This document shows positions 12,937 to 56,073 of a stretch of 64,000 nucleotides of DNA, one piece after another. The notes under the pieces were generated by a model. It saw nothing but the letters and a program-made list of their open reading frames with translations, did no database searches and was not told the origin of the DNA. Each line of letters opens with the position of its first letter. The stretch's first letter is position 1. Source of the DNA: Eledone cirrhosa (lineage: Eukaryota); contig OZ024741.1 of NCBI GenBank assembly GCA_964016885.1, forward strand, positions 175,770,001 through 175,834,000, in the 5' to 3' direction. Position numbers and translations under genes: made by a program.

Positions 12937-13713
12937 TTAATTAGGTTTATAGTATTTAAATGTTCTTCGTATACGGTGATTAAAAAGTATGATCAGTTCC
13001 TGGCTTTTATTTAATAAATCGTTCTTAGATTTAGTAATTTCCAAGATCTCCCCTGAATATAATCTGCATTCCCCCCTGTTCCCAAGATATGGAGTTCTTT
13101 GTAGAATGGTTTTCCAAGATAACTTGAAATCAATTTTTTTCTTTTTATAATTATTTACCGCTTCAGCTAAAGATATGGTGTTAGCTAGTTTAGTATTGTT
13201 GAAACTACTAGAGTGTGCGTAAAATATTTTCTTAAATGTGTTTGATGTACATCCTATATATGTTTTGTTGGAGTCTGTAGTAGACCCAGTGCATTTATAT
13301 ATTACATTATTAATCAAACAGTTGCCATTTAAGGGACAAATGCTTCTATTTCTGCAATTATAGCCATACGTAAGATGGTTGTTGGAGGTGTCTATACTAT
13401 TCTCATTAATCCTTGAACTATTCCTATTGTAATTAATGATAGCAGGAGAATGAAGGTTGCGTTGTGGGTGGTTTGGTGCTAGGGTTGTATTGTGATTTTG
13501 TGTTCTGTTGTTTTTGTGTTGGTGATTTGGGTGGCTGTGTTTTCTAGGTTGAACGATTGTATTATTTGCCTTTTTAAAAGGTGCAGTCCTATTTAAATTA
13601 TGTTGTGGTGGTGTAGTCATATTATTTTTAAGTTTATAAATGTTGTAGTTGCTTATGTTTTACTGGAGATTGCTTGATGTAGAGTATGAGAATATAACAG
13701 TATATTTGTTAAA
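12937..13713 (-). pseudogene. Penelope-like element remnant (RT-EN linker and GIY-YIG endonuclease)
   Basis: ORF 12937-13620 has YNCRNRSICPLNGNCL, NVIYKC and TYIGCTSNTFKK. Upstream IFNKYTVIFSYSTSSN matches the 52996-54039 ORF. Confidence 0.88.
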
Positions 13714-23609: not shown

Positions 23610-23624
23610 ATCTATCTATCTATC

Positions 23625-23719
<95 letters not shown>
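23610..23719 (+). repeat. (TCTA)n microsatellite, left remnant of the Tx1 target array
   Basis: Directly visible. Further remnants at 29518-29552, 35253-35264, 35334-35383, 41107-41153, 41473-41506 and 42019-42040. Confidence 0.98.
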
Positions 23720-23950
23720 TAATCTAGCTGTCGTCTGTTCTACAGTGTGGATGTCATTCACTTCGCACAGAAGTTTTGTTCAAATTTATTGAGGAAATTT
23801 TGTGAGTTCAAACTTAATTTTGATACAATTGTGTAGCTTGACCCTCCGTCTGAACTGTCAGGCGGTGGGTCAGCTCATCTTTACCCCTCCTAGAGGTGAA
23901 AAACCTGTTTTAAAAAATTTTGTGTAAAAAATTTCAATCGTCTAACAGAA

Positions 23951-25831
23951 ATGTTAAACGCAGCGAACGAAAATAGTGGTGGGGGGACAGCGGTAAGAGT
24001 TGTAAGCTCGCACGCTTTAGTCCTCCCTTCCTTCCCAACTAACGTCATAGAGAAGGAAGGAAAAATGAAAATAAAAACGGACGAATCTGCGGAGGAAAAA
24101 AAATTAAATGACGAAAACAACGAAAAAAAAAAATTTGAAAAATTGCATGACAATACTAATAACACAAACAAAGACACAACAAACAAAAAAATAACAGTTG
24201 AAAATAACATAATATCAGAAAACAAAGCAGACGACAAGATTTCTTTTGCACAGAAAACAAAGAAATCTTTGACTTATATAGCGGAAAACATTTCAGATGT
24301 GGTACGAAGGATCACGGACGCAAAACAATACATAAGTGAAGGTGAGAATGGTATTTTATTGGTAAAAATGCCTCAAGAATTCACGAAAGACATTGAAAGC
24401 CGAACGGTCAAGTTTCGGACCATCAACAACAGTACAAAAAAACCTGAACAGCCTTCTCAAGCAGATATCAAAACAGTACTCGCAGAAGTACTGAATGAAA
24501 CAACTTTCATAAGAAAAGACAGACTGTATGGAAGCCTAGCAATTATCATGAAGAACGAATCGGCGGCAAAAAAATGTGCTTTGTCACCGATTCGTTCGAA
24601 AAATTTCACCTTTTATCCATCTTATATGGGGAAAAAAACTCAACGCATATGGCTGGATGCAATGATGCCAGATGTGGACTACTGCTGGCTCATAGCTGGC
24701 TTCATCGATCCAGTGAATGACAACGTGATTTCCATTGGGAAAACCACAGGCAATGCGTTCAGTGGAACAGGTATAGAGCTGGTAGTACAAATGAAGCCTG
24801 AACGCATCGCCCAAATACCCGACAGAATCCTATTAGAGGACCACGGGTATATAAACATTAGCGTGGAGGGGAGAAGGCCGTCCTGCCATATCTGTGCAGG
24901 CAGAGGGCACCTGAAGGCCGCTTGTCCCCAACTCAACAAAAAGAAAACCCTGCTACCAACACCAGCTCCACCACCACCACCACAACAGATAAACAAACAA
25001 CAAAACTCAGTCCCACCCAACCCGTCCCTCAGTAACACCACAACACCACCACAACACAAACAGTCACAACACATTACCCCAAAACAAAATACAGGCCCAC
25101 CCAACCTCTCACTCAATAAAACAACACAACCACCGCAGACACAACATACAACACAGTCTAACATAGTGACATCCATCTCCCCCACAAAGAAAACCAACAC
25201 GGAAACATTACCAGCAAACATACCTCTTCCCTCCAACACTGAAGATAACCCAACGAATTCGGAGGAAGAAACGGAGTCCTTCAGACAGATTAAAAGGAAA
25301 AAAAGAAAACATGTGCAAAACACACAAGGACAAACAACCCCCACCCAAATCGCAACACAATCTAACAAAACAGAAAACACCCCTCCAGCAACAAACAAAA
25401 CCAAACCTGCCCCTCCCCTCTTCGAAACACTCACACCATCGGAAAAAAAGACATTACACTATACTTACATCAACAGAAACAATAATAAATTAAATGAACT
25501 CATATACAATAATCCTTCGGTACAAACCGAAGGTGTAAACTTTGTTTCATCAGAAAACCACCCACATTTAAAACTAATAAAAATCCCAATGAACCTCTAC
25601 CAAAAACTAAAAAAGGATTTTAAGGAGGACGTAGGACCACCCTCTGTCAAACCCATAAACCGCGTCCTACTAAAAAGCTTTCCCCCTCCCCTTCCCCTCC
25701 CCAACACAACTCCAAACACCCCAACCCCACCACACACCGACGACCCCACACCACCACAAGACACCCCTTCACCCAACACCCCCGACCCCATGGAAGTCGT
25801 GCAACCCGAACCCCGGGAAGCGGAAAGGTAG
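23951..25831 (+). CDS. Tx1-type ORF1 nucleic-acid-binding protein with CCHC zinc knuckle
   Basis: 626 aa; VEGRRPSCHICAGRGHLKAAC knuckle, Pro/Thr-rich linker, basic KRKKRK cluster; lies upstream of ORF2. Confidence 0.9.
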   Translation: MLNAANENSGGGTAVRVVSSHALVLPSFPTNVIEKEGKMKIKTDESAEEKKLNDENNEKKKFEKLHDNTNNTNKDTTNKKITVENNIISENKADDKISFAQKTKKSLTYIAENISDVVRRITDAKQYISEGENGILLVKMPQEFTKDIESRTVKFRTINNSTKKPEQPSQADIKTVLAEVLNETTFIRKDRLYGSLAIIMKNESAAKKCALSPIRSKNFTFYPSYMGKKTQRIWLDAMMPDVDYCWLIAGFIDPVNDNVISIGKTTGNAFSGTGIELVVQMKPERIAQIPDRILLEDHGYINISVEGRRPSCHICAGRGHLKAACPQLNKKKTLLPTPAPPPPPQQINKQQNSVPPNPSLSNTTTPPQHKQSQHITPKQNTGPPNLSLNKTTQPPQTQHTTQSNIVTSISPTKKTNTETLPANIPLPSNTEDNPTNSEEETESFRQIKRKKRKHVQNTQGQTTPTQIATQSNKTENTPPATNKTKPAPPLFETLTPSEKKTLHYTYINRNNNKLNELIYNNPSVQTEGVNFVSSENHPHLKLIKIPMNLYQKLKKDFKEDVGPPSVKPINRVLLKSFPPPLPLPNTTPNTPTPPHTDDPTPPQDTPSPNTPDPMEVVQPEPREAER

Positions 25832-25864
25832 GTCTCTACACTCTCCTTTGGCTCTGCCGCCCAC

Positions 25865-28800
25865 ATGGATGTGTTAAGAGTAGGATGTTTGAATGCACGT
25901 GGCCTGGGCTCAACTTGGAAGCAAGCAAAGCTTCTAAATGACCTCAGGTCATGTAGTATAAATGTAATGGTTATCTGTGAGACTCGAATCAGCGTCATGC
26001 GGCAGCTGGCCCCCACCTTCGATGACTTTGAGGTGCATGCATCTCTCTGTCAACCTGGAGGTGGGGGTGGGGTTGTCGTGCTGCTGCAAAAACACCTGGG
26101 TCTTGCCGTACAGGTTGTGCACTCGGACCCGGAGGGTCGTTTGTTGGTGCTAGACGTTGGCAGTAGTGAAAGTGCGGCCTTGAGACTGGTCGCCGTCTAC
26201 TCCCCTTTCGGAGCTGAACGGCCCGACTTCTTCCAGCGTTTGGAGACTTTTCTGGGAACGTCGCGTTCCCTGCTTCTAGCGGGGGATTGGAATGACATCC
26301 TAGATGCACGTTGGGACTATGCAGGAGCATGTCCTAATAGAGGGGGGTGTAACAGACTCAAGGGGTTACTCGACCGTTTTAACTTGGTCGATAGATATCG
26401 ACTAGATTTTCCAACTGTGCCTACCTGGACTTGGAGAAACCACAGTGGTCAATCTAGATCGTACTTAGATAGATTCTTAGTTAGAAGTAAGGATAGGGAC
26501 ATATTAAGCTGTCCAGAAATGCGCACGGTTGGCTACACGGATCACAAATTAGTGACCTGCGTGGTCAATCTCGAGAAAACACATAGACAGGGTCCCGGTT
26601 ACTGGAAACTTAATTTGTCTTTACCGGCAAAAGAGACTTACAGAAACCGGATTAGCAGATTAGTTAAGGAGAGGTTGACGGGTGCAATCGTCAACAACCG
26701 ATGGTGGGCATCTCTCAAAAGAGAGATTAGAACAGAATCAATAAGTTATAGCAAGATGTTAGCTGCCAATAGGAATAGAAACGAGAAAGAATTAACAGGT
26801 AAATTAGAAGAGGCAATCAAGAGCGAAGATGTGGCCAGAGTGCTGGCATCGAGGACGGCCTTGAACCAGTTTTTCGATGCAAAGCATGAAGGCTGCGTCA
26901 TTCGAAGTAAAATACGTGCTCTAGGTAATGAGGGGGCCAAAGCCGTTGGATGGGCCCGCGTGACAGAAGCTAAAAGTGGAAATCGATCCACCATCCGGTC
27001 GTTGCAAGACGAAGATGGACGAGTGATCCGGGAGCCTAAGCAGATGTGCGAGGCCTTTCAAAAGCACTTTGCCCGATTGTTCGGGGGAGGCGAGGGTCCG
27101 GGCCGGGGCGTGGATTTCGGTCCATACCTCGACGGCCTGCCGCGTCTCTCGAACAAAGAGGCGGAGTCCTGCGAGGGACCAATCTCGGCTGATGAGATCG
27201 GAGATGCGCTGAGCCAATGCAGCAGACGCAAATCTCCAGGTCTCGATGGTATACCTTACGAACTTTATTTAGCAATGCCGGTCTTCTTCTCCGAACTCCT
27301 CGAAGCGGTCTACTGCAATTGGCAGCAGAACGGGAGAATTCCTTGTTCTGTAGCCAAGGGCGTAGTCACGCTGGTGAGGAAGGACGAGAACAAGGGGGAT
27401 AGTATAAATAATTTTCGGCCCATAACCCTGCTAAACACAGAGTTAAAGATTTTGGCCAAGGTGTTAGCAAAGAGGTTGGCGCTTGTCGTGGGTGGCCTGG
27501 TGGGAGATGCGCAGACATGTGCTATCCCATCCAGGTCCATTCACGATAACCTCCACCTCATGCGATACATCATAGAGAGGGTTGGCAACAAACCCGGCTT
27601 CGGTGGGGCCCTGATCAACTTGGATCAGTCTAAGGCCTTCGATAGGGTCGACCATGGTTACCTGGATGCGGTGCTAGCGGCGGCTGGGTTCGGTCCTGTT
27701 TTCAGAGGCTGGATCACTGCCCTACATAGCAACCACATCTGTTCTAGGATCAAGGTGAACGGCTACCTTTCGAAGCCGTTCGAAATCACACGATCCATTC
27801 GACAGGGGTGCCCTCTCTCCTCCCTTCTGTACGTATTGACTCTCGAGCCTTTACTGAGGAAGTTGGAGTTGTTGCAGGGTATCCCCCTGGAACCAGGATT
27901 GAGCAAAGCGGTGTCGGCCTACGCCGATGACGTAACAGTAATGGTATCAACCGACTCGGAGATCGAGGCGATCGGTACCCTACTGGAGGAGTACGAAAGG
28001 TTGTCAGGAGCGAAACTGAACCGGGAAAAATCCATCGGGCTGCAACTCGGAACGTGGAGAGGCAAACCGATGCCTCCTGACGGTGTCGTCGGACACTGGA
28101 CGGAGGGCCCGGTAAAGTTGCTTGGGGTCTGGTTTGGACCGGACCTCCAGGTGGAAAAGAACTGGAACGAGGTTACGAACAAGGTGTTTGCACTAACCCA
28201 GAAATGGGCCAAGTGTAAGCTGTCCCTAAAAGGCCGGGCGGAGGTGGCGAACATTTACATAGCGTCCGTCACTTACTACCGCCTGACTGTCGTGCCTTGC
28301 CCTAAGGAAACACTCACCACCATGGAACGCATGCTCTTCCAATTTCTTTGGAAGAAGCGTCCTCCTATGGTGAGAAGATCCATCTGCTGCCAACAACCTT
28401 CGAAAGGAGGACTGGGGATGCCGTGGTTGATGATGCGTAGGCACGCATTAAGGCTACGGCACCTACAGGTATTCCTCACTGGTCAACCGGTGTGGGCTCC
28501 GTTCGTGAAACGAGCCTTTCCGAGACTCGTCTCACTCACCGAGCTACAGTCCTGGGTCAAGCAAAGATCCGGAAAACTGGGAGACTGGCACACTGAGTGT
28601 GCTCAGGCGCTCAGGGCTCTCTGGCAAGCGGGCTGGGCCATCGGTGGAGAATCCACCTCATCATTCTATAGAGGGCTGGTGGCTAGCAGGGGCGATGACA
28701 CCCTTGGAGAGTCGCTGGACATGGAAGAAGACGAACTGGCCAGCCTGTTCGGTAGGACTTTCGGCCCAGGACCAATGGACAACTTCCAGAAGTCACTGGC

Positions 28801-29302
28801 CTGGCAGTGCTACCGAGGGGCTCTACCCGTTCGAGAGAGGCTCTACAGACACGGGCGCCCGGGCAGGGATCCCTCAAAAAAGATTTGCCCTAGATGCGTG
28901 CGTCACGAAGAAACCGTGGCGCACGCATTGGTGCAATGTCCTGGCGTGGCTGATCTGTGGGGCTACGCCGAACAACTGCTGTCGCGGGTGGCGCCGATTA
29001 AATTGACCGCCGAGTCCGTGATGACAATCAAACCGCCTCCCCTCTTCACAAAGGAAGCAAAGGCGGTTTTTCTGTGCGTAATAGCCATGTTGAAAGAGGT
29101 TGTTTGGTGGACACGATTGAAAGGTCTGAGGTCAGGCAACTTCCTCTCTGGCCATAGTCTGGTCTACTTCTTCCGATATCACTTCGGAAGAAGGATAAGA
29201 ATGGAGAGAGAGGTGCTTGGCCACAGGCAGTTTTATGAAAGGTGGGTGATAGTGGCGAGAATGGCTCGTGTAAATGGGCCTTCTCTGTATACCATCCTGT
29301 AG
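25865..29302 (+). CDS. Tx1-type ORF2: APE endonuclease + reverse transcriptase + C-terminal CCHC
   Basis: 1145 aa. Endonuclease motifs NARGL, CETR, GDWN, YLDRF, TDHK; then GPGYWKLN. RT motifs FRPITLLN, LDQSKAFDRVDH, IRQGCPLS, AYADD. C-terminal CPRC...HALVQC. Confidence 0.97.
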   Translation: MDVLRVGCLNARGLGSTWKQAKLLNDLRSCSINVMVICETRISVMRQLAPTFDDFEVHASLCQPGGGGGVVVLLQKHLGLAVQVVHSDPEGRLLVLDVGSSESAALRLVAVYSPFGAERPDFFQRLETFLGTSRSLLLAGDWNDILDARWDYAGACPNRGGCNRLKGLLDRFNLVDRYRLDFPTVPTWTWRNHSGQSRSYLDRFLVRSKDRDILSCPEMRTVGYTDHKLVTCVVNLEKTHRQGPGYWKLNLSLPAKETYRNRISRLVKERLTGAIVNNRWWASLKREIRTESISYSKMLAANRNRNEKELTGKLEEAIKSEDVARVLASRTALNQFFDAKHEGCVIRSKIRALGNEGAKAVGWARVTEAKSGNRSTIRSLQDEDGRVIREPKQMCEAFQKHFARLFGGGEGPGRGVDFGPYLDGLPRLSNKEAESCEGPISADEIGDALSQCSRRKSPGLDGIPYELYLAMPVFFSELLEAVYCNWQQNGRIPCSVAKGVVTLVRKDENKGDSINNFRPITLLNTELKILAKVLAKRLALVVGGLVGDAQTCAIPSRSIHDNLHLMRYIIERVGNKPGFGGALINLDQSKAFDRVDHGYLDAVLAAAGFGPVFRGWITALHSNHICSRIKVNGYLSKPFEITRSIRQGCPLSSLLYVLTLEPLLRKLELLQGIPLEPGLSKAVSAYADDVTVMVSTDSEIEAIGTLLEEYERLSGAKLNREKSIGLQLGTWRGKPMPPDGVVGHWTEGPVKLLGVWFGPDLQVEKNWNEVTNKVFALTQKWAKCKLSLKGRAEVANIYIASVTYYRLTVVPCPKETLTTMERMLFQFLWKKRPPMVRRSICCQQPSKGGLGMPWLMMRRHALRLRHLQVFLTGQPVWAPFVKRAFPRLVSLTELQSWVKQRSGKLGDWHTECAQALRALWQAGWAIGGESTSSFYRGLVASRGDDTLGESLDMEEDELASLFGRTFGPGPMDNFQKSLAWQCYRGALPVRERLYRHGRPGRDPSKKICPRCVRHEETVAHALVQCPGVADLWGYAEQLLSRVAPIKLTAESVMTIKPPPLFTKEAKAVFLCVIAMLKEVVWWTRLKGLRSGNFLSGHSLVYFFRYHFGRRIRMEREVLGHRQFYERWVIVARMARVNGPSLYTIL

Positions 29303-29552
29303 GTAAAGAAGTAAAGGAGAGGGGAGCACCTTCTCCATGTGCTCCCCGGGCAAAGGATTGCACACTTTTTCGGGGGTGTGTGCAACCCCCATCACGTCCC
29401 CTCCCTTTTGAGGTTATATTCGATTATTTTCATGTTACACCCTTTTTACTCGATTATATGTAAACTCCCCCTTTGTACTTGTCCCTTCTTTTTATGCCTT
29501 TATGGTAAATAAAGAAATCTATCTATCTATCTATCTATCTAGCTATCTATCT

Positions 29553-32500
29553 CGGAAAAAATAGACGTGTTTTTGTTTCGCTCCTGTATTTTGTCGGAAT
29601 TAATTACGAGAAGCGGTAGGTTTGTTTAAGTAACTTATTTGTTGTGTTTAACCCCTCGCCTGGGCCTGCAGACGTTGGGTAAAATAAGTTTCGTCCCTTT
29701 TTGGGGCGAAATTTAATAGTTATAAGTTGTCGATGAAAAGTCGTTTAGTGACAATGGACGCCATTAATACGACGCATGCCTCTCCCCCAAGGAAGGTGAT
29801 AGAGAGAAGGTAGCAGCACAACACTGTAAGCTTTCCCTCCTCACTCCCGCAAAGGACAACACGGAATCAAAAGAAAGAATTGTGGAAATGGGTGAAAACC
29901 CCAAAAGTAACAATTACACAAACAAGAACAACAATGACAATAACAACACAATCAACAACAGCAACAATGACAATAACAACACAACCAACAACAGCAATAA
30001 TGACAACAACAACAACAAAGGAAAAAAGCAAGCCAGCACGAATAACAACAACAACAATGATAACAACACGAAAGAAAATAGACCCACAGCTGCAGTCTCC
30101 TACGCACAGGCGGTCCGAGAAACGCAGACATACGAGGCACTGGACATCTCGAATGCCAAGAAATTGCTGAAAGAAGCAAGGAATTGTGTAACTTTCGGGG
30201 AAGGTGGGGAATTCATAATTATCTCCCCCGAAGAAATTAGAAGGAACACAGTCCCGAGGACCGTAATCTTTAGGAGAGTTTCGAACACGACTAGGAAACC
30301 GGCTCAATTGTCCCGAAGCGAAATTGAGCTGGTCCTAAGTAGTGCCTGGAAGGATATCGCTTTCATACAGAAAGGGAAACTGTATGGAAGCATATCTGTT
30401 TTAATGCAAGATGAATTGGCGGCACGGAAATATTCTGTGTCGCCAATTGTATCCAAGGCATACACCTTTTTCCCCACATATTGGGGAAAAGAACTCAAAA
30501 GATATGAATCTCGGGCATCAGGCCAATGCGAGCATTTGGTGGGTGCTAACGGGATTCTTAGAAGATGAGGACACATTCCTTTCGATAGCCGAATCCAGCG
30601 GGGGCATATTCGGCGGCAATAGCCTTGAAGTTCTGGTCCAAATGAGACCAGAACGGATAGCAAGAAAACCGCAGCGTGTGTCCCTGGATGGAGTCGCCTT
30701 CATAAACATTTCTGTTGAGGGCAGACGGCCTTCACGCTACCACTGTTCAAGAAGTGGTCACTTGAGAGCTTCCTGTCCCCTTTTATATGCCTCCCCCCAA
30801 AAAAGACGCTTCTGCCCACCCCACACACAAAATCACAACCACCACCATCACCACCACACCACCACCACAACAACAACCACAACGACACGAGAATATAACA
30901 ACACAAGACACTGTCCCACCCAACCCCTCCCCACCTAAAACAAATACAAAAGCAACCACAACAAAACCCCAAAATATACCCCTCCCAACAACACCGACGA
31001 GGACCCCTTATCAACGTCACCCAGTGACGAGGAGGGAGAACCCTTTCAACCGGTAAAAAGAAAGAAAAGAAGGCACCACATTAACAAAAATGCAACAAAC
31101 ACACAACCACAAGCACAAACAGAACAAACATCACAAACAAAAAAGCCACCCCTCCTGAAAACATAACACATACTACAAAATATAAACATACACAAGAACA
31201 ACAAACAAAAACAAACAAACACAACAAAAACAGTATACATACATCAACACAAACAACAAAACAATAGCCAAAGACCCTTCGGTGGAAACCGAAGGAAAAA
31301 TGTTCACCAACGCGGCGACTAAACCGTATTTAAAAATACTTAGGGTCCCAAGGGACACCTACGCAATGCTCAAACAGATCTTTCCCGAGGACGTGGGGAA
31401 CCCCTGCCTAGACCTATCAACCGCGTCCTCTTGAAACGTTTCCCCCCACCACCACAGACACCCCTCCCCCACCCCACCACAGACTGATGTCCCCACCACA
31501 TCCCAAACCACCATCCCACCAAACAACCCCGCCGACAACCCCATGAAAAGTGTGCAACCTGGTCGCCAGGAGAAGGACAGGTAGGTGTATTTTCCTTTTT
31601 TTCCACTCTAAACTCTTCACCACCAACATGAATGCTATAAGAGTTGCATGTTTAAATGTGTGCGGCCTGGGGATGTCCTGGAAGCAGGGCAAACTCTTAA
31701 ATGACCTCAGGTCGTACAGAATGGATGTGATAGCTATTTGCGAGTCCAGTATCAGCAGCGAGCACCAACTGTCTCCCATCTTCGACGACTTTGAGATCTA
31801 TGCATATCTCTGTCAGCCGGGGGGTGGAGGAGGGGTGGTCGTTCTGCTGCGAAAACACCTGGGCCTCGCAACACGGAAGGTACACCTGGACCCGGAGGGT
31901 CGACTGGTGGTTCTAGACGTCGGCAGTTGAGAAGGTGGAGCTTTCAGTCTGGTGGCAGCGTATGCCCCAACTGGGACACTGCGACCGGACTTCTTCCAAC
32001 GCCTAGAGACTTTTCCGGGAACGTCTCGCTCCTTGCTTTTAGTGGGGGACTGGAATGGTATCCTGGATGCAAGTTGGGACTATGTAGGGGCATGTCCCGA
32101 TAGAGGGGCATATAACAGCCTCAAACGGTTAATCGGCCGATTTGATCTGGCCGATAGATATCGACTAGATTTTCCGACTGTGCTACTGTGGAAGTGGACT
32201 AATCATAGCGGAACATCTAGGTCGTACCTAAATAGATTCCTAGTTAGAAATAAGGATAGGGACATATTAAGCTGTCCACGAATGTTCAAGTTGGTGACCG
32301 AAGTGGTCAACCTTGATAGAATCCATAGACAAGGACCCGGTTACTGGAAGCTAAACTTGTCCTTACCGACAAACAAAGCTTACAGTAAGCGGATTATCAC
32401 TCTAGTTAAGCAGCGGTTGACGGGGACAATTGTCAACAGCAGGTGATGGGGGTCTCTCAAGAGAGAAATTAGAATAGAATCGATAGGTTTTAGTCAGGAA

Positions 32501-35250
32501 TTAGCATCAGATAGGAATAGAACTGAAAGGATAGAGTAGAAGAGGCGATTAGGAGTGTCAACGTGGCCGGCGTGCTGGCGTCAAGAACGGCCCTAGACCA
32601 GTTCTTTGACGCGAAGCACGAGGGCTGCGTTGCCAGGAGTAAAATACGCGCTCTGGGTAACGAAGAAGCCAAAGCTGTGAGCTGGGCTCGAGTGACAGAG
32701 GCAAAAAGTGGAAACAAGTCCACAATTCTGTCTTTGAAGAATCAGGATGGACGCGTGATCCTTGAACCTGAGCGGATGTGTGCGGCCTTTCAACGGCGCT
32801 TTGCACGACAGTTCGGGAGGGGCGGCAGCCAGGTGAGGCCATGGATTTCGGTCCATACCTCGACGGTCTGCCGCGGCTCTCGGACAGTGAGGCGAAGTCC
32901 TGCAAAAGGCCGATTTCAGCCGCTGAAATAGGGGATGCGTTGAGCCAATGCGGCAAACGCAAATCTCCCAGTCTCGAAGGTCTACCATACGAACTTTATG
33001 TAGCGATGTCGGACTTGTTCTCCGATCTCCTTGAGGCGGTCTACTGCAACTGGCAACAGAACGAGAGTATTCCCAGTTCTGTGACCAAGGGCGTAGTCAC
33101 GCTGGTGAAGAAGGACGAGAATAAGGGGGAGGACATAGATAACTTCAGGCCCATAACTCTGCTAAACACAGAGTTAAAGATTTTGGCCAAGGTATTAGCG
33201 AAGAGGTTGGGCTTGTCGTTGGGAACCTGGTGGGAGAAGCGTAGAAATGCGCAATCCCGTCCAGGTCCATACACGACAACCTCCACCTCATGCGATACAT
33301 CGTAGATAAGGTAGGGAACGAACCCGGCTTGGTGGGGCCCTGATCAACTTGGATCAATCTAAGGCATTTGATAGGGTCGACCATCGGTACCTGGATGCGG
33401 TGCTCGCGACGGCAGGCTTCGGACCCGTTTTCAGGGGCTGGATTGCTGCAATGCACAGCAGCAACACCTGCTCGAAGGTCAAGGTGAACGGCTACCTCTC
33501 GGAGCCGTTCCAAATCACGCGATCCATCCGACAGGGATTGTCTCTCTCCTCCCATCTGTATGTGCTGGCTCTCGAGCCAATTCTGCGGAAGTTGGAGTTG
33601 TTGCAGGGAATACCCTTGGAACCGGGATTGCGGAAAGCGGTGTCGGCATACGCCGATGACATGACAGTAATGGTGTCGTGCGCCTCGGAAATCGGGCAGA
33701 TTGGCACCTTACTGGAGGAATACGAATAGTTTACAGGAGCCAAGCTGAACCGGGACAAGTCCGTCTGTTTGCAACTCGGAACGTGGAGAGGCAAACCGAT
33801 GCCCTCCGACGGCGTCGTCGGACGCTGGACGCTGGACGGAGGGACCGGTGAAGCTGCTCGGGGTCTGGTTCGGACCGGACCTCCAGGTGGAGAAAAACTG
33901 GGACGAGATAACGGGCAGGGTGTTGCACTCGCCCAGAAGTTCGCCGAGTGCAAACTATCTCTGAAAGGTTTAGCGGAGGTGACGTACACTTATATAGCGT
34001 CCGTCATCTACTACCGCTTGACCGCCGTGCCTTTGCCAGCGAAAACGCTCGCCAAAATGGAGTGCGTGCTCTTCCAATTCCTTTGGAAGAAGCGGGCCCC
34101 TTTGGTGAGAAGATCCATCTGCTGTCAACACCCTTCGAACGGAGGGCTGGGAATGCCGTGGCTGACGATGCGTAGACATGCATTAAGGCTACGGCACCTC
34201 CAGGTATTCCTCACCGGTCAGCCGGTGCGGGCCCCTTTTTTGAGGCGAGCCTTTCCGAGACTCGTCTCACTCACCGAGCTTCAATCCTGGCTCAAGCAAA
34301 GACCGAGAAAAGTGCGTGACTGGCACATTGAATGTGCCCAGGTGCTCACGGCCCTTTGGCAAGTGGAGACTCAACCTCAACATTCTATAGAGGGTTGGTG
34401 CGCAGCAAGTGCATCGACGCTCTCAGAGAGGCTCTGGGCATGGAGGAAGGCGAGCTAGCCAGTCTGTTTGGTAGGACGTCTGGCCCAGGACCGATGGGCA
34501 ACTTTCAAAGGTCCCTGGCTTGGCAGTGCTACCAAGGAGCTCTACCCTTTCGAGACAAGCTCTACAGACACGGGCGCCCGGGTAGGGACCCCTTGAAGAA
34601 GATCTGTCCGAGATGCATGCGTGACGAGGAAACCGTCGCGTACGCATTCGTATACTGCCCGACCGTTGCTGACCCGTGGGGCTATGTGGAACGACTACTG
34701 TCGCGGGTGGGACCAATCCGGTTGACCACCGAGTACATTGTCACGATCAAACCGCCCACCCCCTACAAAAACGAAGGAGAGGCGATTTTCCTCTGTGTGA
34801 TTGCTATGGCGAAAGAGGTTGTATGGTGGACGAGGTTGAAAGGGTTGAGGTCAGACACCTTTCTCTCCGGCCAACAACTGGTCCTTCTTTTCAAGTACCA
34901 TTTTAGAAGATGGATCAGAATGGAGAGAGAGGTGCTCTACCCCAGCAAGTTTTATGAAAGGTGGGTGAAAGTGGCGAGAATGGCCCGAGTGAACGGGCCT
35001 TCTCTCTATATCAGCCTGTAGATGAGAGAGAAGAAGGAGAAGAGGAAGGGAGCACCCGCTCTTTGTGCTCCTGAGGGTTGCACATTCTTTTCGGGGGTGT
35101 GTGCGACCCACGTCAACGCCCCCTCCCTATTAAGGACTTCGATTGTTGAATTTGATTTGTTATGTTTTTACACGTCCTTTGAAATGTATGTAAACTCCCC
35201 CCTTGTAATTTGTCCCAATCTTTGATGCCCTGGTGGCAAATAACTAGAAA
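29553..35250 (+). mobile_element. Full-length decayed Tx1-type element, copy 2 (distinct subfamily)
   Basis: ORF1 (~29754-31584) and ORF2 (31628-35021) are homologous to copy 1 but broken by many stops and frameshifts; flanked by (TATC)n. Confidence 0.93.
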
Positions 35251-35264
35251 GTTATCTATCTATA

Positions 35265-35333
35265 TGTAAAATCGTCGGCATGTGTCTTTGTATTGTCCCC
35301 TTTTCTTGTGCGCCCTTGTGGCAAATAAAGAAA
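35265..35333 (+). mobile_element. Extremely 5'-truncated Tx1 3' end, copy 3
   Basis: TGTAAA...CTTTGTATTGTCCCC...GCCCTTGTGGCAAATAAAGAAA between TATC tracts. Confidence 0.75.
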
Positions 35334-35585
35334 TATATCTATATATCTACCTACCTATCTATGAATCAATCAATCTATCTATCTTGATAGAGTAAGACAC
35401 GCTTCACATCGGCTCCGCTATTCCATCGGAATTAACCCTTACTATAGTAAGTACCAGATACATTTTTCAGTGCAACACATTTGGAACACTAACCCCTGTT
35501 ATTTAGGGAAACATTTTTACATTTACCCCCTTTTTAGGGGGTAAAATAAATATCTATTTTGCTGTAAAATTTCTTTCTTGGCAGC

Positions 35586-37432
35586 ATGGCGGAAAAGATG
35601 GCAGACATGTCTGCCATTACCTCTGCCACGCCCCCCAAGTCTGAAGAACAAAAAATAAATACAACAAAATTAGACAACGCAACAAACAAGGAAAATGAAA
35701 AAACAAATGTTACGGAAAATGAGCAAACGGAAAACAAACAAACAGAAAATAATAATACAAATAACAACAAGGCAACTTTCGCCCAGAAAACAAAACAGTC
35801 CATAACATATACACCAATAGACTTAACTGCCGCCAGAGAAAAACTGGCCGAAGCAAAGAAACACATTTTTTGGGGGGAGAACGGAATGTTTTCCATTAAC
35901 TCCCCCCCCCCCCCAGAATTCAAGAAAGCGAGAACAGAGAGCACAATTCTCTTCAGAACAATATTAAACCAAACAAGAAAGCCAGCACAGCCCAGCCAAA
36001 TGGAGATAGAGTTGGTCCTAAAAGACTATATGAAGAATATTCTCTTCATACGAAAGGACCGACTCTATGGCAGCATTTCGGTCTTAACAAAAGACAAGGA
36101 AACGGCGCAGAAGCTTTCCCTAAGCTCACTCTCATCGACAACATACAGCTTCTATCCCTCCTACATGGGTAAAAGAACACAGAGAGTCAAAGTACAAACA
36201 ATGCTGCCCACAATGGACTTCTGGTGGGCTATTGCTGGCTTCATAGACATGGGCGAGGACACAGTGCTGTCAATGGGGAAGGCATCCGGAGATGCGTTCC
36301 TGGGAATGGGCCTCGACCTACTAGTCCAAATGAGGCCCGAAAGAATAGCACAAATCCCGGATCGCATCTGGCTGGATGACCTCACCCCAATAGATATAAT
36401 TGTAGAGGGGAGAAGACCAGCATGCTATTTATGCACGGAAAGGGGACACGTTAAGGCTAACTGCCCGAAACCTATCCCCCAAAAAGGACTATTGCCCACA
36501 CCCACCACAAACAGTACACCAACACCACCCACCTCCAAAAATACACTAATGCCACACACAGCAAACAAAATACAGACACCACCAACCACAAGCACAACAC
36601 AAACATCACCACCACCAGCACCAAACACAAGCACGACACAAAAATCACCACCACCATCACCAACCAAAACACAAACATCACCACCACCATCACCAACCAC
36701 AAGCACGACACAAACATCACCACCACCACCACAAAACGCATTCCAAACAAATAATAAAAAAACAGCAACAAATCTACCCCTCCCGCAAAAAAAAACAACC
36801 AGACACGACGTCCCTCCCACCTAGCGCTGAAGAGTTTCCCCCAACTTCTGAAGAAGAAGGAGAAGAAGCCTTCAGACAAGTTAAAAGAAAAAAAAGAAAG
36901 CACACACCCAGCACACCACAAATAACCCACACACAAACACCAACTCCAATCAAAAACACCCCACCCTCAACAAACAAAAATAGATCTGCGCCTCCCCTCT
37001 CCGAAACATTGACAGCATCACAAAAAAAAGACATTGCAATACACATATATAAATAAAGAAAACAAAAAACTGTTTAAATTAATAAACAATAGCCCTTTGG
37101 TGCAGACCGAAGGGCCAAACTTTATCTCAACAGAGAACTTCACCCATTTAAAAATGATAAAGGTCCCTCTGGACCTTTATCGTTCCTTAAAAGAACAATT
37201 TAGACAGGACGTGAGCCCCCCCTGTTTAAAACCGTTAAATCGCGTCCTCTTGAAAGATTTCCCCATAACCTCCCCTCTCCCTGACACAACTCCAAACACC
37301 CCAACCCCACCACACTCGGGTACCCCCACACCACCACAAAACATCCCTCCACCCAACACACCTGACGCCATGGAAATTACACAACCCGGAGAGGTAGGTG
37401 CTTTTCTTTCTTCACTTTCAACACCAAAATAG
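35586..37432 (+). pseudogene. Tx1 ORF1 (frameshifted near A-run ~36787-36796)
   Basis: CYLCTERGHVKANC knuckle; the downstream frame resumes EEEGEEAFRQVKRKKRKH and the conserved C-terminal domain. Confidence 0.88.
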
Positions 37433-40400
37433 ATCAATTGAGAGTTGGCTGTTTGAACGCGCGTGGCCTGGGCTCAGCTTGGAAGCAAGCAAAGCTACTA
37501 AGTGACCTCAGGTCACGAAGTATAGATGTGATGGTTGTTTGCGAGAGTCGGATCAGCAGCGTGCGACAGCTGGCTCCCGCCTTCGATGACTTTGAGATGC
37601 ACGCATCTCTCTGTCAACCCGGAGGCGGTGGTGGGGGGGGGGGGGGTGCCGTACTGCTGGATAAACGTCTGGCTCTCGACGTACAGATTGTTCACTCGGA
37701 CCCGGGGGGTCGATTACTGGTGCTGGACGTCGGAGGCAGTGAAGGCGGGGCTTTCAGACTGGTCGGTCTTTATGCCCCCTTCGGGGCTGAAAGAGCCGAC
37801 TTCTTCCAGCGTCTGGAGACTTTTCTAGGAACGTCGCGTTCCCTGCTTTTAGTGGGGGACTGGAATGGAATCCTAGATGCGCGTTGGGACTATGCAGGGA
37901 CATGTCCCGATAGAGGGGGGTGTAGCAGCCTCAAGAGGTTACTCGATCGATTCGACCTGGTCGATAGATTTCGACTAGATTGTCCAACTGCGCCAACCTG
38001 GACCTGGGCAAACCGCAGTGGACAATCTAGATCGTACCTAGATAGGTTTTTGGTTAGGAGTAAGGATAGGGACGTATTTAGTTGTCCAGAATTGATCATG
38101 GTTGGCTATTCAGATCACAAATTAGTGACCTGCGTGGTCAACCTTGATATAACGCATAGACAGGGTCCCGGTTACTGGAAGATGAACTTGTCCTTGCCGG
38201 CAAAGACAGATTACAGGAACCGGATTAGTAGCTTAGTTAAGATGCAGTTGACGGGAGCGATCGTCAACAGTAGGTGGTGGGTATCTCTAAAGAGAGAGAT
38301 TAGAGTAAGTTCGATAGGTTACAGTAAGGAACTAGCGGCGAATAGAAATAGGAAGGAAAGGGAGTTAACAGATAAACTAGAAGAGGCGATTAGGAGCGGA
38401 GACGTAGCCAGAGTGTTAGCGGCGAGAACGGCGTTGAGCCAGTTCTTTGACGCGAAGCACGAAGGCTGCGTTGTCCGAAGTAAAATACGTGCTTTAGGAA
38501 ACGAGGGGACCAAAGCTGTTAGCTGGGCCTGCGTGACAGAAGCCAAGAGTGGGATTAAATCCACCATTCGGTCTTTGCGAGACCAGGATGGACGGGTGAT
38601 CCTTGAACCTGAGCGGATGTGCGAGGCCTTTCAAAAGCACTTTGCTCGACTGTTCGGAGGGGCCGGGGGGCCGGACGGGGATGTGGACTTCGGTCCATAC
38701 CTCGACGGTCTACCGCGTCTTTCGAGCGGCGAAACGGAGTGCTGCGAAAGGCCAATCACAGCCACTGAAATCGGGGAAGCGCTCAGCCAATGCAGCAGAC
38801 GCAAATCTCCGGGTCTCGATGGTCTACCATACGAACTTTATTTAGCTATGCCGGTCTTGTTCTCCGAACTCCTCGAGGCTGTCTATTGCAACTGGCAACA
38901 GAACGGGAGAATTCCCTGTTCTGTGACCAAGGGCGTGGTCACGCTAGTGAGGAAGGACGAGAGCAAGGGGGACGACTTAAGTAACTTTAGGCCCATAACT
39001 CTGCTGAATGCAGAGTTACAGATTTTGGCCAAGGTGTTGGCGAAGAGGTTGGCGCTTGTGGTGGGTGGTTTGGTGGGAGACGCGCAGACATGCGCTATCC
39101 CGTCCAGGTCCATTCAAAACAACCTCCACCTCATGCGATACATCATAGAGAGGGTTGGCAACGAACCCGGCTTTGGTGGGGCCCTGATCAACTTGGATCA
39201 ATCTAAGGCGTTCGATAGGGTCGACCATGGTTACCTGGATGCGGTGCTAGCGGCGGCGGGCTTCGGACCCGTTTTCAGGGGCTGGATTTCTGCCATGCAC
39301 AGTGGCAACATCTACTCTAGGATTAAAGTAAACGGCTACCTCTCGGAGCCGTTTCAAATCACCCGGTCCATCAGACAGGGGTGCCCCCTCTCCTCCCTTC
39401 TGTACGTATTGACTCTCGAGCCACTGCTGCGGAAGTTGGAGTTGCTGCGGGGCATACCCCTGGAACCGGGATTGCACAAAGCGGTCTCGGCCTATGCTGA
39501 CGACGTAACAGTAATGGTGGCGGACGCCTCGGAAATCGGGGTGATCGCCACCCTACTGGAGGAATACGAAAAGCTGACGGGGGCTAGGCTGAACCGGGAC
39601 AAGTCAGTCGGTTTGCAACTCGGAACGTGGAGGGGCAAACCGATGCCGTTAGACGGTGTCGTCGGGCGGTGGACGGAGGGCCCGGTGAAGCTGCTCGGGG
39701 TCTGGTTCGGACCGGACCTCCAGGTGGAGAAGAATTGGGGCGAGGTGACGAGCAGGGTGTTTGCGCTGTCCCAGAAGTGGGCCAAGTGCAAACTATCAAT
39801 GAAAGGTCGGGCGGAGGTGACGAACGCTTACATAGCGTCCGTCATCTGCTACCGCCTGACCGTCGTGCCTTGCCCCAAGGAAAAGATCACCATCATGGAA
39901 CGCATGCTTTTCCAGTTCCTCTGGAAGAAGCGGCCTCCCATGGTGAGGAGATCCATCTGCTGCCAGCACCCTTCGAAAGGAGGGCTGCGTATGCCGTGGC
40001 TGTTGATGCGTAGGCACGATTTGAGGCTAAGGAATCTACAGGTATTCCTCACCGGTCAGCCGGTGTGGGCCCCGTTTGTGAGGCGAGCCTTCCCACAGCT
40101 CGTCTCGCTCACCGAGCTGCAATCCTGGGTGAAGCAAAGACCGAGAAAACTGGGCAACTGGCACACCGAGTGTGCCCAGGCGCTCACGACTATCTGACAA
40201 GCGGACCCGAGTGTCAGTGGAGAATCCACCTCGACATTCTATAGAGGGCTGGTGGCTAGCAGGGGCGACGACACCCTTGGAGAGTCGCTAGGCATGGAGG
40301 AGGACGAACTGGCCAGCCTGTTCGGTAGAACTTTCGGCCCGGGACCCATGGACAACTTCCAGAGGTCCCTAGCCTGGCAGTGTTACCGGGGGGCTCTGCC

Positions 40401-40875
40401 CGTTCGAGAAAAGCTCTACAGACACGGGCGCCCGGGCAGGGATCCAGCGAAAAAGATCTGTCCCAGATGCGTGCTCGACGAGGAAACCGTTGCGCATGCA
40501 CTGGTACACTGCCCGGGCGTTGCCGATCTGTGGGGCTACGTCGAACGACTGCTGTCGCGTGTGGCGCCGATTCGATTAACCGCCGAGTCTGTGGTGAACA
40601 TCAAGCCGCCTCCTCCCTTCAGAAATGAAGCAGAGGCGGTCTTTCTGTGCGTAATAGCCATGATGAAAGAGGTTGTGTGGTGGACGCGCCTGAAAGGTCT
40701 GAGGTCGGATGACTTTCTCTCCGGCCATCACCTGGTTTACTTCTTCCGATACCACTTCGGAAGAAGGATCAGGATGGGGAGAGAAGTGCTTGGCCCCAGA
40801 CAGTTTTATGAAAGGTGGGTGAAAGAAGCGAGAATGGCTCGTGTAAATGGGCCTTCTCTCTACATTGTTCTGTAG
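37429..40875 (+). pseudogene. Tx1 ORF2 (APE-RT) with one premature stop
   Basis: The 919 aa and 207 aa ORFs share a frame; TGA aligns to TGG (Trp) in copy 1. Confidence 0.93.
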
Positions 40876-41105
40876 GTGAAGAAGTGAAGAGGAAAGGGGG
40901 AGCGCCTCCTCTCTGGGCTTCCCCCGCGAAAAGGGTTGCACACTTTTCGGGGGTATGTGCAATCCCCAACACGCCCCCTCCCTTTTGAGGACTTTTTATT
41001 ATTATATTATTATTGTTATTCCTTTTTTTCTTTACTCGATTTATGTAAACTCCCCCAGTCTGTATTTGTCCCCTTCTTTTGTGCCCTCGTGGAAAATAAA
41101 TAGAA

Positions 41106-41151
<46 letters not shown>

Positions 41152-41153
<2 letters not shown>

Positions 41154-41471
41154 CTCCGGCCAACAACTGATTCTTTTTTTCAAATACTACTTTGGAAGAA
41201 GAATCAGGATGGAGAGAGAGGTGCTGTACCCCAGCAAGTTTTATGAAAGGTGGGTGAAAGTCGTGAGAATGGCTCTTCGTACTCTTGGAGATGAGGGTTG
41301 GACATTTTTTCGGGGGTATGTGTTACCCATATGAAATGTCTCCCCCTATTGGGGAAAATTGATTAACTTTTCAATTGCATTTGTGATAATATTTTACACG
41401 TTTTTATTGTATGTAAACTTCCCCCTTTGTATTTGTCCCCTTCTTTTGTGCCCCTGTGGCTAATAAAGAAA
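41152..41471 (+). mobile_element. 5'-truncated, internally deleted Tx1 3' end, copy 5
   Basis: ORF2 tail (FGRRIRMEREVLYPSKFYERWVKV) and 3' UTR ending AATAAAGAAA, between TATC tracts. Confidence 0.88.
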
Positions 41472-41473
41472 CA

Positions 41474-41506
<33 letters not shown>

Positions 41507-42017
41507 GAAGCAGAGGCGGTGTTTCTGTGCGTAATAACCATGGCGAAAGAGGTTGTATGGTGGACGCGTCTGAAAGGACTGAGGTCAGGCACCTTTCTCT
41601 CTGGCCAACAACTGGTCCGTTTCTTCCAATATCATTTCGGAAGAAGGATCAGGATGGAGAGAGAGGTGCTGCACCCCAGCCGTTTCTATGAAAGATGGGT
41701 GAAAGTGGCGAGAATGGCCCGTGTGAATGGGCCTTCACTCTACATCAGACTATAGGTGAGGAAGATGAAAGACCAAGGGAGCACCCCTTCTCTGTGCTCC
41801 TGAGGAGAAGGGTTGCACACTTTTTTCGTGGGTGTGTGCGACCCCCCAAGGCGCCTCCTCTCTATTGAGGATTTTGTTAAAAATTTTATTTTTTGTTATA
41901 TCTTATTTTATTTTTATAATTTGTTATTGCCTCCTCCTTATTGAGGACGCCTTTTTGTGTAAACTCCCCCCTTTGTACTTGTCCCACTTTTGATGCCCTA
42001 GTGGCAAATAAAAGAAA
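41507..42017 (+). mobile_element. 5'-truncated Tx1 3' end, copy 6
   Basis: EAEAVFLCVITMAKEVVWWTRLKG...GPSLYIRL plus the full 3' UTR; followed by (TATC)n then (TC)n. Confidence 0.92.
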
Positions 42018-42033
42018 CATATCTATCTATCTA

Positions 42034-42108
<75 letters not shown>

Positions 42109-52842: not shown

Positions 52843-54155
52843 TTAACTGTATACTTTGTGAAAAGTTCTATGGAATTTATGCAGGCAGATAGAAAACAAA
52901 TCTGTACGTCTATTTATTATAGAATCTAGGTTAGAGATAATGGTAAATTTTTCATTTAGGCAGAGATTACAGATTTTAGATAGAGAGCTGTTCAATTATG
53001 AGGATGCAGAAGAAACCTTCTTCCAAAAGATGGTATATTTAATGTTTTTGTCTTTTAAGGACCATATGAGTTCTGAGAGAGCAGTGTTGGTTCTTTTAAG
53101 TTTGTATTTGAAAGATGAATGATGATTATAGAGACGAGCTTTAAAAGAGGTGGAAGTGGAGCCAAAATAGGTGAAGGAATTGGTGCTAGTTATAATTTTA
53201 CATTCATAAATTAAGTTTTTATCGAGACAATGGTTGTTGAGAGGACATTTATTTTTAATGCGGCAGTTGCAATTAGAGAGATTATTAATGAGTGACCTAG
53301 TGTTATCTATAGAAGGAATTGGATTGGAGAAGTTGTTTGCGATAGGAATAATAGGAATAATAGTTTCTTGATTTAGAGTTGGATTATGAACATTTAGCGA
53401 AGTTGTGTTTGACGTTGTATTTGGGTTTACAGAAGTTAGCCTAGGGTTTACAATTACGTCGGGAGTACTATTACTGTTATTATGAAATTCAATGTTGGAA
53501 GGAAGAGATTTAGTATTTAGTATTTTATTGTTGTGTTTAGAGATGATGTTGGAAATATTGGAGGATGTGGAATAAGAAAATGTGATGGTGTGTTTGTTAA
53601 ATATTTTACTATAGATATGTGAGGGAGGGAAGCATTTATTTAAGGCACTAAAAAATAATTTAGGAATATTGTTATTAATAGAGATGGAGGAAGGAGCATT
53701 ATACCAGATTATGTTTTTGTATCTAGGTCTTTTATTAAAATTATTGGAATGATCAGGATTAATTATTCTACTGTAAGTTTTTCTAGAATTTGTTTCTTTA
53801 CTATATTTGATTTTATCTGGATAGCCGGCTTTAGAAAGTGCGTTATTATAGTAATTGGCGTTAGCATCAAAGATGTTTTTATTAGAGGATATGTTAGATA
53901 TTCTTTTTCCAATATTACTAACTATAGCATTCTTGATATTGGTAGGATGGTTAGATTTAAAGTTAACATTATTTAGGTTCTCATTGTTTTTATGGTAAGG
54001 GTAATATAGGCCAGTGTCAAGATTAAGAGATACATCCAAGAAATTAGCTAGTTTGATACTATTATCAAATTCAATTTTTAGGTTATGTTGGTTAAAGAGA
54101 TTACGTATATTGTTCTTAATAATATTAAGATTAACTATATTGCAATTTAGGATAG
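52843..54155 (-). pseudogene. Penelope-like RT C-terminus + GIY-YIG endonuclease
   Basis: NFLDVSLNL, CNCRIKNKCPLNNHCL, LIYEC, TYFGST, FKARLYNH. The frame continues past one TAA (52996) into ICNLCLNEK...NRRTDLFSICLHK. Confidence 0.92.
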
Positions 54156-54182
<27 letters not shown>

Positions 54183-54188
<6 letters not shown>

Positions 54189-56073
54189 ACAGGGAGAAAG
54201 AGACGATTATTAGGAAGAAAAATATACTTTTTTTCCTTTTTTGTTTCTCTCTCTCTTTTTTCTGGGTTAGAAAATGATTAAAACTAAATGTTTTACTTTG
54301 TGTGAAGTGTTAAGGTATTAGTTGATTTATTTATTATTTAACAATGACATTGATTTATCTATTTATAATAATTGTCTATTACCGGTTTCAGCATGTTTAT
54401 GCATTATCAAATGATAGTGAAATGTATTAGTGTGGTGTGGTACATGTTAAAGAGAAGATGCAGAAAGAATAATGTTATTTACAAACAAGGTTTATGAAGT
54501 GAAAAGAAAAAAGGAAAAAAGAAAATGAAAACGGACATAATGTAGAGCATAAAAAGTCAATGTGGAAGAAAAAATAATGTTATTATATATCATCATCATC
54601 GTTTAACGTCTATCTTTCATGCTAGCATGGGTTAGACGGGAATTGTCCAACTTGAGGCAAGATTGATCGGGTGATCCCGTCTCGCCGATATAGAATTGTT
54701 TATATGTACAAAATACTAGTAGTTTCTCAATGGCTATCCTGTTATATATCATTTATACTTCTTGTTTAATTGATTCTCTCAACTGATGTTCATGGAGCTT
54801 TTTTATTGACAAACATAATTGATATGTATTTTATATGTAATAGGATTATTTTCAACACACTTGACACGTATGTGTATATGTGTATATGTGTGTGTGTGTG
54901 TATGTAGATTGTACACACATGTGTAGTGAATGTTAGACGCTGCTTTCTGTAGTTTGTCATCACCCCTTCCTTCCTTATTCATTTTTAGTGTGTGACGTCA
55001 TCACCCCTTCCTTCCTCAAATTTATATATAAATTGATTAAACTTAAAATTAGTATATATAAATATATATATACGCCACAGTAGTTAACTGGTACATATTG
55101 TATCTACTCCACACAGATTGAAAGGATGAAAGGTAAGGCAAATGTCTAAATATAAATCTCAGCGAGATAACATATGAACCAGTTAACTACTGTGGCGTAT
55201 ATATATATATTTATATATACTAATTTTAAGTTTAATCAATTTATATATACATTTGAGGAAGGAAGGGGTGATGACGTCACACACTAGAGATAAATGAGGA
55301 AGGAAGGGGTGATGGCAAACTACAGAAAGCAGCGTCTAACATTCACTACACATGTGTGTACAATCTACATACACACACACACACACATATATATACGTGT
55401 CAAGTGTGTTGAAAATAATCCTATTACATATAAAATACATATCAATTATGTTTGTCAATAAAAAAGATCCATGAACATCAGTTGAGAGAATCAATTAAAC
55501 AAGAAGTATAAATGATATATAACAGGATAGCCATTGAGGAACTACTAGTATTTTGTACATATAAACAGTCCTATATCGGCGAGATAGGGTCACCCGATCA
55601 ATCTTGCCTCAAGTTGGACAATTCCCGTCTAACCCATACTAGCATGGAAGATAGACGTTAAACGATGATGATGATATATAATAACATTATTTTTTCTTCC
55701 ACATTGACTTTTTATGCTCTACATTATGTCCGTTTTCTTTTTCTTTTTTCTTTTTCTTTTCACTTCATAAACCTTGTTTGTAAATAACATTATTCTTTCT
55801 GCATCTTCTCTTTAATATGTGTGACACCACACTGATACATTTCACTATTATTTGATAATGCATAAAAATGCTGAAACCGGTAATAGACAATTATTATAAA
55901 TAGATAAATAAATGCCATTGTCAAATAATAATAAATCAACTAATACCTTAACACTTCACACAAAGTAAAACATTTCGTTTTAATCATTTTCTAACCCAGT
56001 AAAAAAGAGAGAGAGAAACAAAAAAGGAAAAGAAGTATATTTTTCTTCCTAATAATCGTCTCTTTCTCCCTGT

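Follow-up and report, generated by a model that had tools for sequence, protein, structure and literature searches.

APE-type LINEs insert through target-primed reverse transcription (TPRT), and how they acquire or change their targets is an open question. Several of them use microsatellites: ACAY, AC, TC, TTC and TAA repeats have been described as LINE targets (PMC3812793), as have TTCC and TTTC (PMC4494074) and TG (PMC4640811). Under the rule given by Kojima, a target preference exists when one repeat type occurs in more than 20% of flanks (PMC4494074). The mechanism of microsatellite targeting is described as not well understood (PMC3812793), and one study reports that loop grafting gave no modular transfer of specificity (PMC1950540). 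The closest described systems are Kibi in (TC)n, Koshi in (TTC)n and crocodilian families in (TTCC)n/(TTTC)n, which are, like the copies presented here, Tx1-group APE-RT elements in microsatellites (PMC4494074, PMC3812793).

The locus analysed here is a stack of six LINE copies in a (TATC)n array of Eledone cirrhosa. Very probably, it arose by six separate subfamily insertions of a young Tx1-group LINE whose insertion is strand-specific, falls at TC|TAT(C) within (TATC)n and leaves duplications of 15-22 bp, the process being likely TPRT.

Six LINE copies in one (TATC)n array

The window, that is, the whole 64,000-nt stretch of DNA that was analysed, has a GC content of 37% and abundant (TA)n and (CA)n. 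Within it, 18.4 kb are occupied by three full-length and three 5′-truncated copies of an APE-RT LINE, all six on the plus strand and with (TATC)n between copies (Table 1), an arrangement already given in the preliminary description and borne out by the coordinates and the ORF matches. The latter lie exclusively within the stack and exclusively on the plus strand, and (TATC) tracts of at least 4 units are confined to 23613-42039; outside the stack, the background of an 8-nt TATC run is 0.1-0.5% of 30-nt windows. As had also been claimed, no copy sits in the other tracts of the window: the (TA)n tracts, of which there are more than 50, and the (CA)n and (TATG)n tracts.

Table 1. Features of the stack, with positions counted from the first letter of the window.
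Feature	Positions	Strand	Source
(ATCT)27.5 microsatellite, upstream end of target array	23610..23719	+	
Copy 1, full-length, intact, subfamily A; 3′ end GAAA-TC-TATC	23721..29517	+	
Copy 1 ORF1, 626 aa, CCHC knuckle, Thr/Pro-rich tail	23951..25831	+	
Copy 1 ORF2 (1145 aa) with APE endonuclease, reverse transcriptase and zf-RVT	25865..29302	+	Pfam
(TATC)n spacer	29518..29553	+	
Copy 2, full-length, decayed, subfamily B; 3′ end GAAA-GT-TATC	29554..35250	+	
68-bp 3′ fragment; 3′ end GAAA-TA-TATC	35266..35333	+	
Degenerate (TATC)n spacer	35334..35383	+	
Copy 3, full-length, subfamily C; 3′ end GAAA-TC-TATC	35384..41106	+	
(ATCT)12 spacer	41107..41153	+	
5′-truncated copy, 318 bp, internal deletion; 3′ end GAAA-CA-TATC	41154..41471	+	
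(TATC)8 spacer	41474..41506	+	
5′-truncated copy, 511 bp; 3′ end GAAA-CA-TATC	41507..42017	+	
(TATC)5 passing into (TC)34, downstream end of array	42020..42105	+	

All six copies end in AATAA..GAAA, as first described; they do not pass straight into TATC as was then thought, since two bases (NN) intervene that are typical of each subfamily (Table 1), and the six copies present six different 3′ end variants. Their 5′ UTRs align at 48-55% identity, against 47% in a shuffled control, so that the strong difference reported for them stands, and their ORF2 DNA is 79-84% identical. Together, these features uphold the view that the copies are independent insertions. Decay differs among them too, in agreement with the earlier reading: copy 1 has both ORFs open, copy 3 carries two ORF1 frameshifts, one ORF2 stop and a non-ATG codon at the ORF2 start position, and the lesions of copy 2 are numerous. 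Most of 56 full-length relatives match the 5′ end of copy 1 at position 1-4, and relatives of copy 3 at other loci are 93-97% identical to it.

Tx1-clade elements are characterised by RNA-binding domains and a CCHC knuckle in ORF1 and by zf-RVT in ORF2. In copy 1, ORF2 matches PF03372, PF00078 and PF13966, the last with 26.9 bits and slightly below the cut-off, and its catalytic motifs align with those of human L1 ORF2p (175 bits). The ORF1 motif CX2CX4HX4C is visible in every subfamily, with a Pfam zf-CCHC match below the cut-off; the Atlas look-alikes of ORF1 are zf-CCHC and ZCCHC3-type RNA-binding clusters (0.90-0.92, a lead only), those of ORF2 generic RT clusters only. The two ORFs, with APE at the N-terminus of ORF2 followed by RT, the 5′ truncation of 25 of 81 copies, the lack of LTRs and the duplications of 15-22 bp are those of APE-type elements of the L1 group. 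The nearest named relative comes from Argonauta hians (67% identity over the RT region), followed by ENA proteins (45-53%) and then by fish and turtle elements. A metagenome scan yielded two APE-RT loci with a U2 snRNA 3′ flank (L184 and L189), with which copy 1 ORF2 aligns at 405 and 467 bits and about 29% identity; three other metagenome loci (L190, L197, L198) reach 44-54% best-segment identity and are decayed or short, with no readable target. In a FastTree phylogeny of 78 RT sequences, in which Keno-type references were identified by their U2 flank and named Tx1L, Kibi, Koshi and vertebrate L1 sequences were not included, the window copies form a group with elements of fish and turtles (0.95), this group is sister to the Keno-type clade (0.86), and plant and fungal L1s stand apart. 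These comparisons of sequence support membership of the family in the Tx1 group, and the affinity proposed at the outset is seen both in the tree and in the scores (467 bits against 175 for human L1).

Some side observations concern snRNA genes. The U2 flank at L184:4740-4790 and L189:5850-5900 reads (A)GTATCTG and shares TATCT, within two bases of the junction, with the TATC target; this may reflect chance or an old cleavage preference. At L191:9202-9356 a Tx1-like element adjoins a U1 snRNA (Rfam), and L188:75-105, beside another Tx1-like element, is by eye presumably a U1 snRNA 5′ fragment. The window holds further features outside the stack. Two open frames on the minus strand, 52996-54309 and 12937-13659, have no Pfam match, and their ends look to us similar to Penelope-like elements in the GIY-YIG endonuclease region. 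Positions 9969-10444 contain 2.3 tandem copies of a 203-bp unit, dispersed at other loci too (L247), which is presumably a SINE.

Junctions and target duplications across the genome

The 3.0-Gb genome was searched with the 3′ 518 bp of copy 1 and with exact and degenerate 3′-end patterns. The 518-bp query gave 1,294 candidates, of which the 40 scored were near-identical. The exact pattern of subfamily A found 1,565 ends, 858 continuing with TCTAT and 1,356 with NN-TATC, whereas the degenerate pattern, which takes in most subfamilies, found 16,983 family ends, 13,925 of them (82%) reading GAAA-NN-TATC and 1,427 NN-TATA; reversed-pattern controls had no match genome-wide. Measured by the rule of Kojima, 82% of flanks thus stands against 20%, and the mapping of 3′ ends that the preliminary description had called for favours a target preference. 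Of the 1,631 ends that show neither NN-TATC nor NN-TATA, subfamily D explains only 334. The NN-TATA class was considered as insertion into (TA)n and rejected, much of it being subfamily H at TATATC: among the first 100 ends listed of the 3′ end shared by B and H, a hand count gave 64 NN-TATATC and 27 of GT type. Run starts of (TA)6 number 6,662,505 in the genome and those of (TATC)3 53,610, so that, set against the 1,427 NN-TATA ends, the preference for TATC over (TA)n is of the order of a thousandfold, a rough ratio in that one array-start phase is counted, arrays are broken up by the insertions themselves and older copies escape the exact patterns. Among copies that are 99-100% identical, 38 of 39 read GAAA|TCTAT, and just 2 of 117 distinct 3′ ends enter TCTC. 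Strand- and sequence-specific targeting of TATC, as originally suggested, therefore holds and can be refined to a TC|TAT core that tolerates TATA. Poly(A) is absent from the 3′ junction, and AATAAA is found only about 6-10 nt before the end. Sequence related to the stack occurs in three organisms (four contig sets compared).

Whether TATC is a target or a tail of the element can be seen at the 5′ junctions. Our sample comprised 81 further subfamily-A copies, 39 being the top-scoring ones and the other 42 completing a set of the 47 copies that come first along contig C1; four copies with internal indels were counted as full-length and not as truncated. An 8-nt TATC run lies no more than 30 bp from the 5′ junction in 49 of the 56 full-length copies; 5 of the others show a single TATC and 2 show TATA. 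Among the 25 truncated copies the corresponding numbers are 12, 5 and 4, with 4 showing neither. One of these last four is a chimera with another subfamily and two are apparently true exceptions. A TATC run or a single TATC is thus present in 54 of 56 and 17 of 25 junctions, the single-TATC class being weak support for targeting. The preliminary description would have been contradicted by a majority of 5′ junctions outside TATC, and these numbers show the opposite. In 22 of the 81 copies, non-periodic bases fix the register of the duplication: 20 duplications measure 15-22 bp and extend out of TATC or TATA to sequence outside the repeat; the other two sit in longer repeats and are uninformative. 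Since the duplications reach into non-repeat DNA, the repeat was present before insertion and the site is TC|TAT(C/A), the context to the left of the duplication usually being TC. In five copies (L060, L144, L152, L164 and L169) the duplication begins exactly at TAT and NN differ between left and right, hence NN come with the element. In L169 the left and the right side both show TATA at the fourth base; L050 has one additional TATC on the right side only, as expected from a templated tail. For L064, no joint skipping the element was found among 15 of 92 matches listed (four contig sets).

A long TATC array is not required for insertion of A, as copies at L167, L168 and L062 sit in minisatellites with one TCTAT per unit and are flanked by 17-22 bp duplications. 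Two other copies, L068 and L154, are peculiar in structure: one A copy lies behind a 3′-shortened relative ending in TATC repeats, which suggests internal priming, and the other has a 367-bp ORF1 insertion.

Subfamily A is young. Over 73 copies, identity to the closest copy in the sample has a median of 99.67%, and of its 56 full-length copies 22 have an open ORF2 and 10 have both ORFs open. Stacking is frequent: 23 of 47 position-ordered A copies adjoin a family member, 16 having one upstream and 15 downstream. Of 22 long TATC arrays among the matches listed, 5 follow a copy, 11 precede one, 12 do either and 10 touch none that is recognised. Because an upstream neighbour is found for 16 of 47 copies against 5 of 22 arrays chosen blind to the element, random choice among already occupied arrays is enough, and no extra preference for stacking is needed. 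Four stacks elsewhere contain 4-7 copies each, on a single strand per stack, and one of the four includes two neighbours that are identical over 1 kb; stacks of the window type are routine in the Eledone cirrhosa genome.

These data bear on three other explanations of the locus. That (TATC)n is merely a 3′ tail encoded by the element, with the arrays on the left being tails of earlier copies, gains something from the two element-carried bases after GAAA and from the 16 of 47 copies that follow another copy; nevertheless, it is very improbable, as on both sides the duplications extend beyond TAT to unique sequence, TATC stands on the left even in copies without an upstream neighbour, and 10 of the 22 long arrays touch no recognised copy. 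Passive accumulation has been proposed for Waldo-A/B of Drosophila near CA repeats (PMC3812793), and the copies could likewise have inserted at random and been retained by selection or recombination in TATC arrays only. We regard this as extremely improbable: copies 99-100% identical already show the fixed junction and strand, and selection would fix neither register nor strand. Neighbours identical over 1-2 kb do exist in some stacks elsewhere, to which tandem duplication may add; for the window, though, tandem duplication of a single insertion has next to no probability, given six 3′ ends, unrelated 5′ UTRs, an ORF2 identity of 79-84% and closer relatives at distant loci.

Under insertion at a pre-existing TATC target, the APE endonuclease of the element would nick the GATA strand either at GATA/GA or slightly past it, the placement within TAT being ambiguous, and TPRT would start from that nick. 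Transcripts likely extend briefly into the downstream repeat, because AATAAA lies near the 3′ terminus and poly(A) is not copied. The read-through tail might then form base pairs with the nicked strand and so make the selection of TC|TAT sites more discriminating; the extra right-hand TATC of L050 lends thin support to such a templated tail. Pairing between RNA and primer at the target has been proposed for SART1Bm (PMC7265360). Each insertion would duplicate the target on both sides, and arrays would in consequence keep accepting copies. The idea that the stack grew by repeated insertion has held.

Sister subfamilies and the basis of target choice

Two sister subfamilies, D and H, have proteins 79-90% identical to those of the TATC subfamilies and insert at other repeats. 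D was found among the ends failing both patterns, and its ORF2 is 79% identical to that of copy 1. Every fetched D copy occupies the same position in a 72-bp tandem unit, whose array lies inside a dispersed element bounded by TTAA and with inverted ends starting CCC, which we take to be of piggyBac type. The D copies listed on contigs C1-C3 cluster near contig ends. Six near-identical ones form a 36-kb stack in the 72-bp repeat (G000:C1:4222000-4261999; L214-L217), and further D loci are L218-L263. Full-length D copies have their 5′ junctions at a single position, with different units on the left and on the right, which suggests a 5′ end joined by homology, without simple duplication. The junction can be read as YY-ACTC followed by TATA, that is, with a TC|TAT core, or alternatively as TT|ACTC; a truncated D copy that would fix the cut site was not found. 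Subfamily H shares its 3′ end with B (578 ends together) and is 90% identical to it. Its target is a degenerate minisatellite of about 35/70 bp, with insertion at CTC|TATATC (L294-L305), and its copies are about 95% identical and mostly decayed, one of them (L297) being truncated with a matching left flank.

TC|TAT is contained in all three targets, the TATC array, the 72-bp repeat and the minisatellite of about 70 bp. The ORF2 tree has TATC subfamilies to either side of its root; D and H fall inside, next to one of these subfamilies, and the node that joins the three has weak or no support. D and H are likely derived target switches. Two observations concern other flanks. At L225 and L233, a subfamily ending in AATAAACAGAAA-TT is followed by TGTC in both copies, and its target is possibly (TGTC)n or mixed. 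At L222:6499 (+), a copy with intact ORF2 is followed by a CTTACTAATAC-type tandem repeat, either another possible target or a stray.

How could so close relatives come to use different targets? One explanation is that the endonuclease alone selects the target, the RNA giving only NN, and that D and H switched through amino-acid changes; we consider it possible, at clearly less than an even chance. Endonuclease swaps do shift the target between SART1Bm and TRAS1Bm (PMC7265360), 18 residues are private to the D endonuclease, among them G116W in the loop that follows the YxP motif and G223D beside the SDH motif, and at L169 the same fourth base on both sides argues that no tail overwriting took place there. 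H is harder to accommodate, as only 9 of 240 endonuclease positions set it apart from the TATC-type B and T copies, the differences being mostly conservative and all of them outside the hairpin and YxP loops; moreover, the hairpin loop highlighted for L1 (PMC1950540) is alike in D, H and the TATC types. A change in the hairpin of H, considered as a candidate, came from one decayed copy and is absent in ten others. Selection by the endonuclease alone may apply, more readily to D than to H. Alternatively, target choice might be inherited through the RNA: a TC|TAT nick would be shared by all subfamilies, a short tail transcribed from the repeat around the parent copy would pair with the nicked strand, and a stray insertion would found a subfamily with a new target and little change in the endonuclease. 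We put this forward tentatively, as a rather unlikely account.

Known specific families are deeply diverged, whereas here three targets occur among endonucleases that are 75-90% identical. Intact copies are known for at least two subfamilies (A and D) and, with sisters this close, exchanging domains, single residues or RNA tails between them would thus be informative. If targeting were indeed inherited through the RNA, the family would amount to a natural series of retargetable LINEs that includes intact members. In addition, about half of the long TATC arrays (12 of the 22 sampled) adjoin a copy, which matters for the design of microsatellite markers and for repeat annotation in this animal group.

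Relation to described target-specific LINEs

The family is a well-supported, genome-wide case of a microsatellite-targeting Tx1 element with close sisters that target differently, and its target is apparently unreported. No LINE targeting TATC/GATA was found in the literature, Repbase and Dfam being outside that search; that the target is already recorded in some repeat database has a probability only somewhat short of even, and if it is absent from Repbase, (GATA)n joins the known LINE targets. In Octopus vulgaris, 13 recently active L1-Tx1 families are listed, so that such families are already catalogued as repeats; in the parts of that publication available, 'target site' does not occur in the text, nor 'TATC', 'GATA' or 'target' in the supplement (PMC13282606). 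Octopus repeat annotation likewise includes L1-Tx1 without targets in the available part of PMC8967140.

The host and target set these copies apart from Kibi, Koshi and the crocodilian Tx1 families, which live in fish and reptiles: here the host is an octopod and the target (TATC)n. Keno is likewise of the Tx1 group and targets the U2 snRNA gene (PMC4640811). The loci L184 and L189, which fit the definition of Keno by their U2 flank and contain TATCT in it, differ in that they end in an A-tract, sit in a gene and are only about 29% identical; the flanks of the window copies are microsatellite, and the window has no Rfam match that would indicate a U2 insertion. Subfamily D resembles Tx1L of Xenopus, which inserts into the non-autonomous piggyBac element Tx1D (PMC4494074, PMC1950540), in occupying one position inside a TTAA-flanked element. 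Unlike that of Tx1L, the target of D is a 72-bp tandem unit, and D forms its stacks near chromosome ends. Finally, the telomeric SART1 and TRAS1 also combine a short-repeat target, a fixed cut and a proposed RNA-primer pairing, but they belong to the R1 clade and have poly(A) at the junction (PMC7265360).
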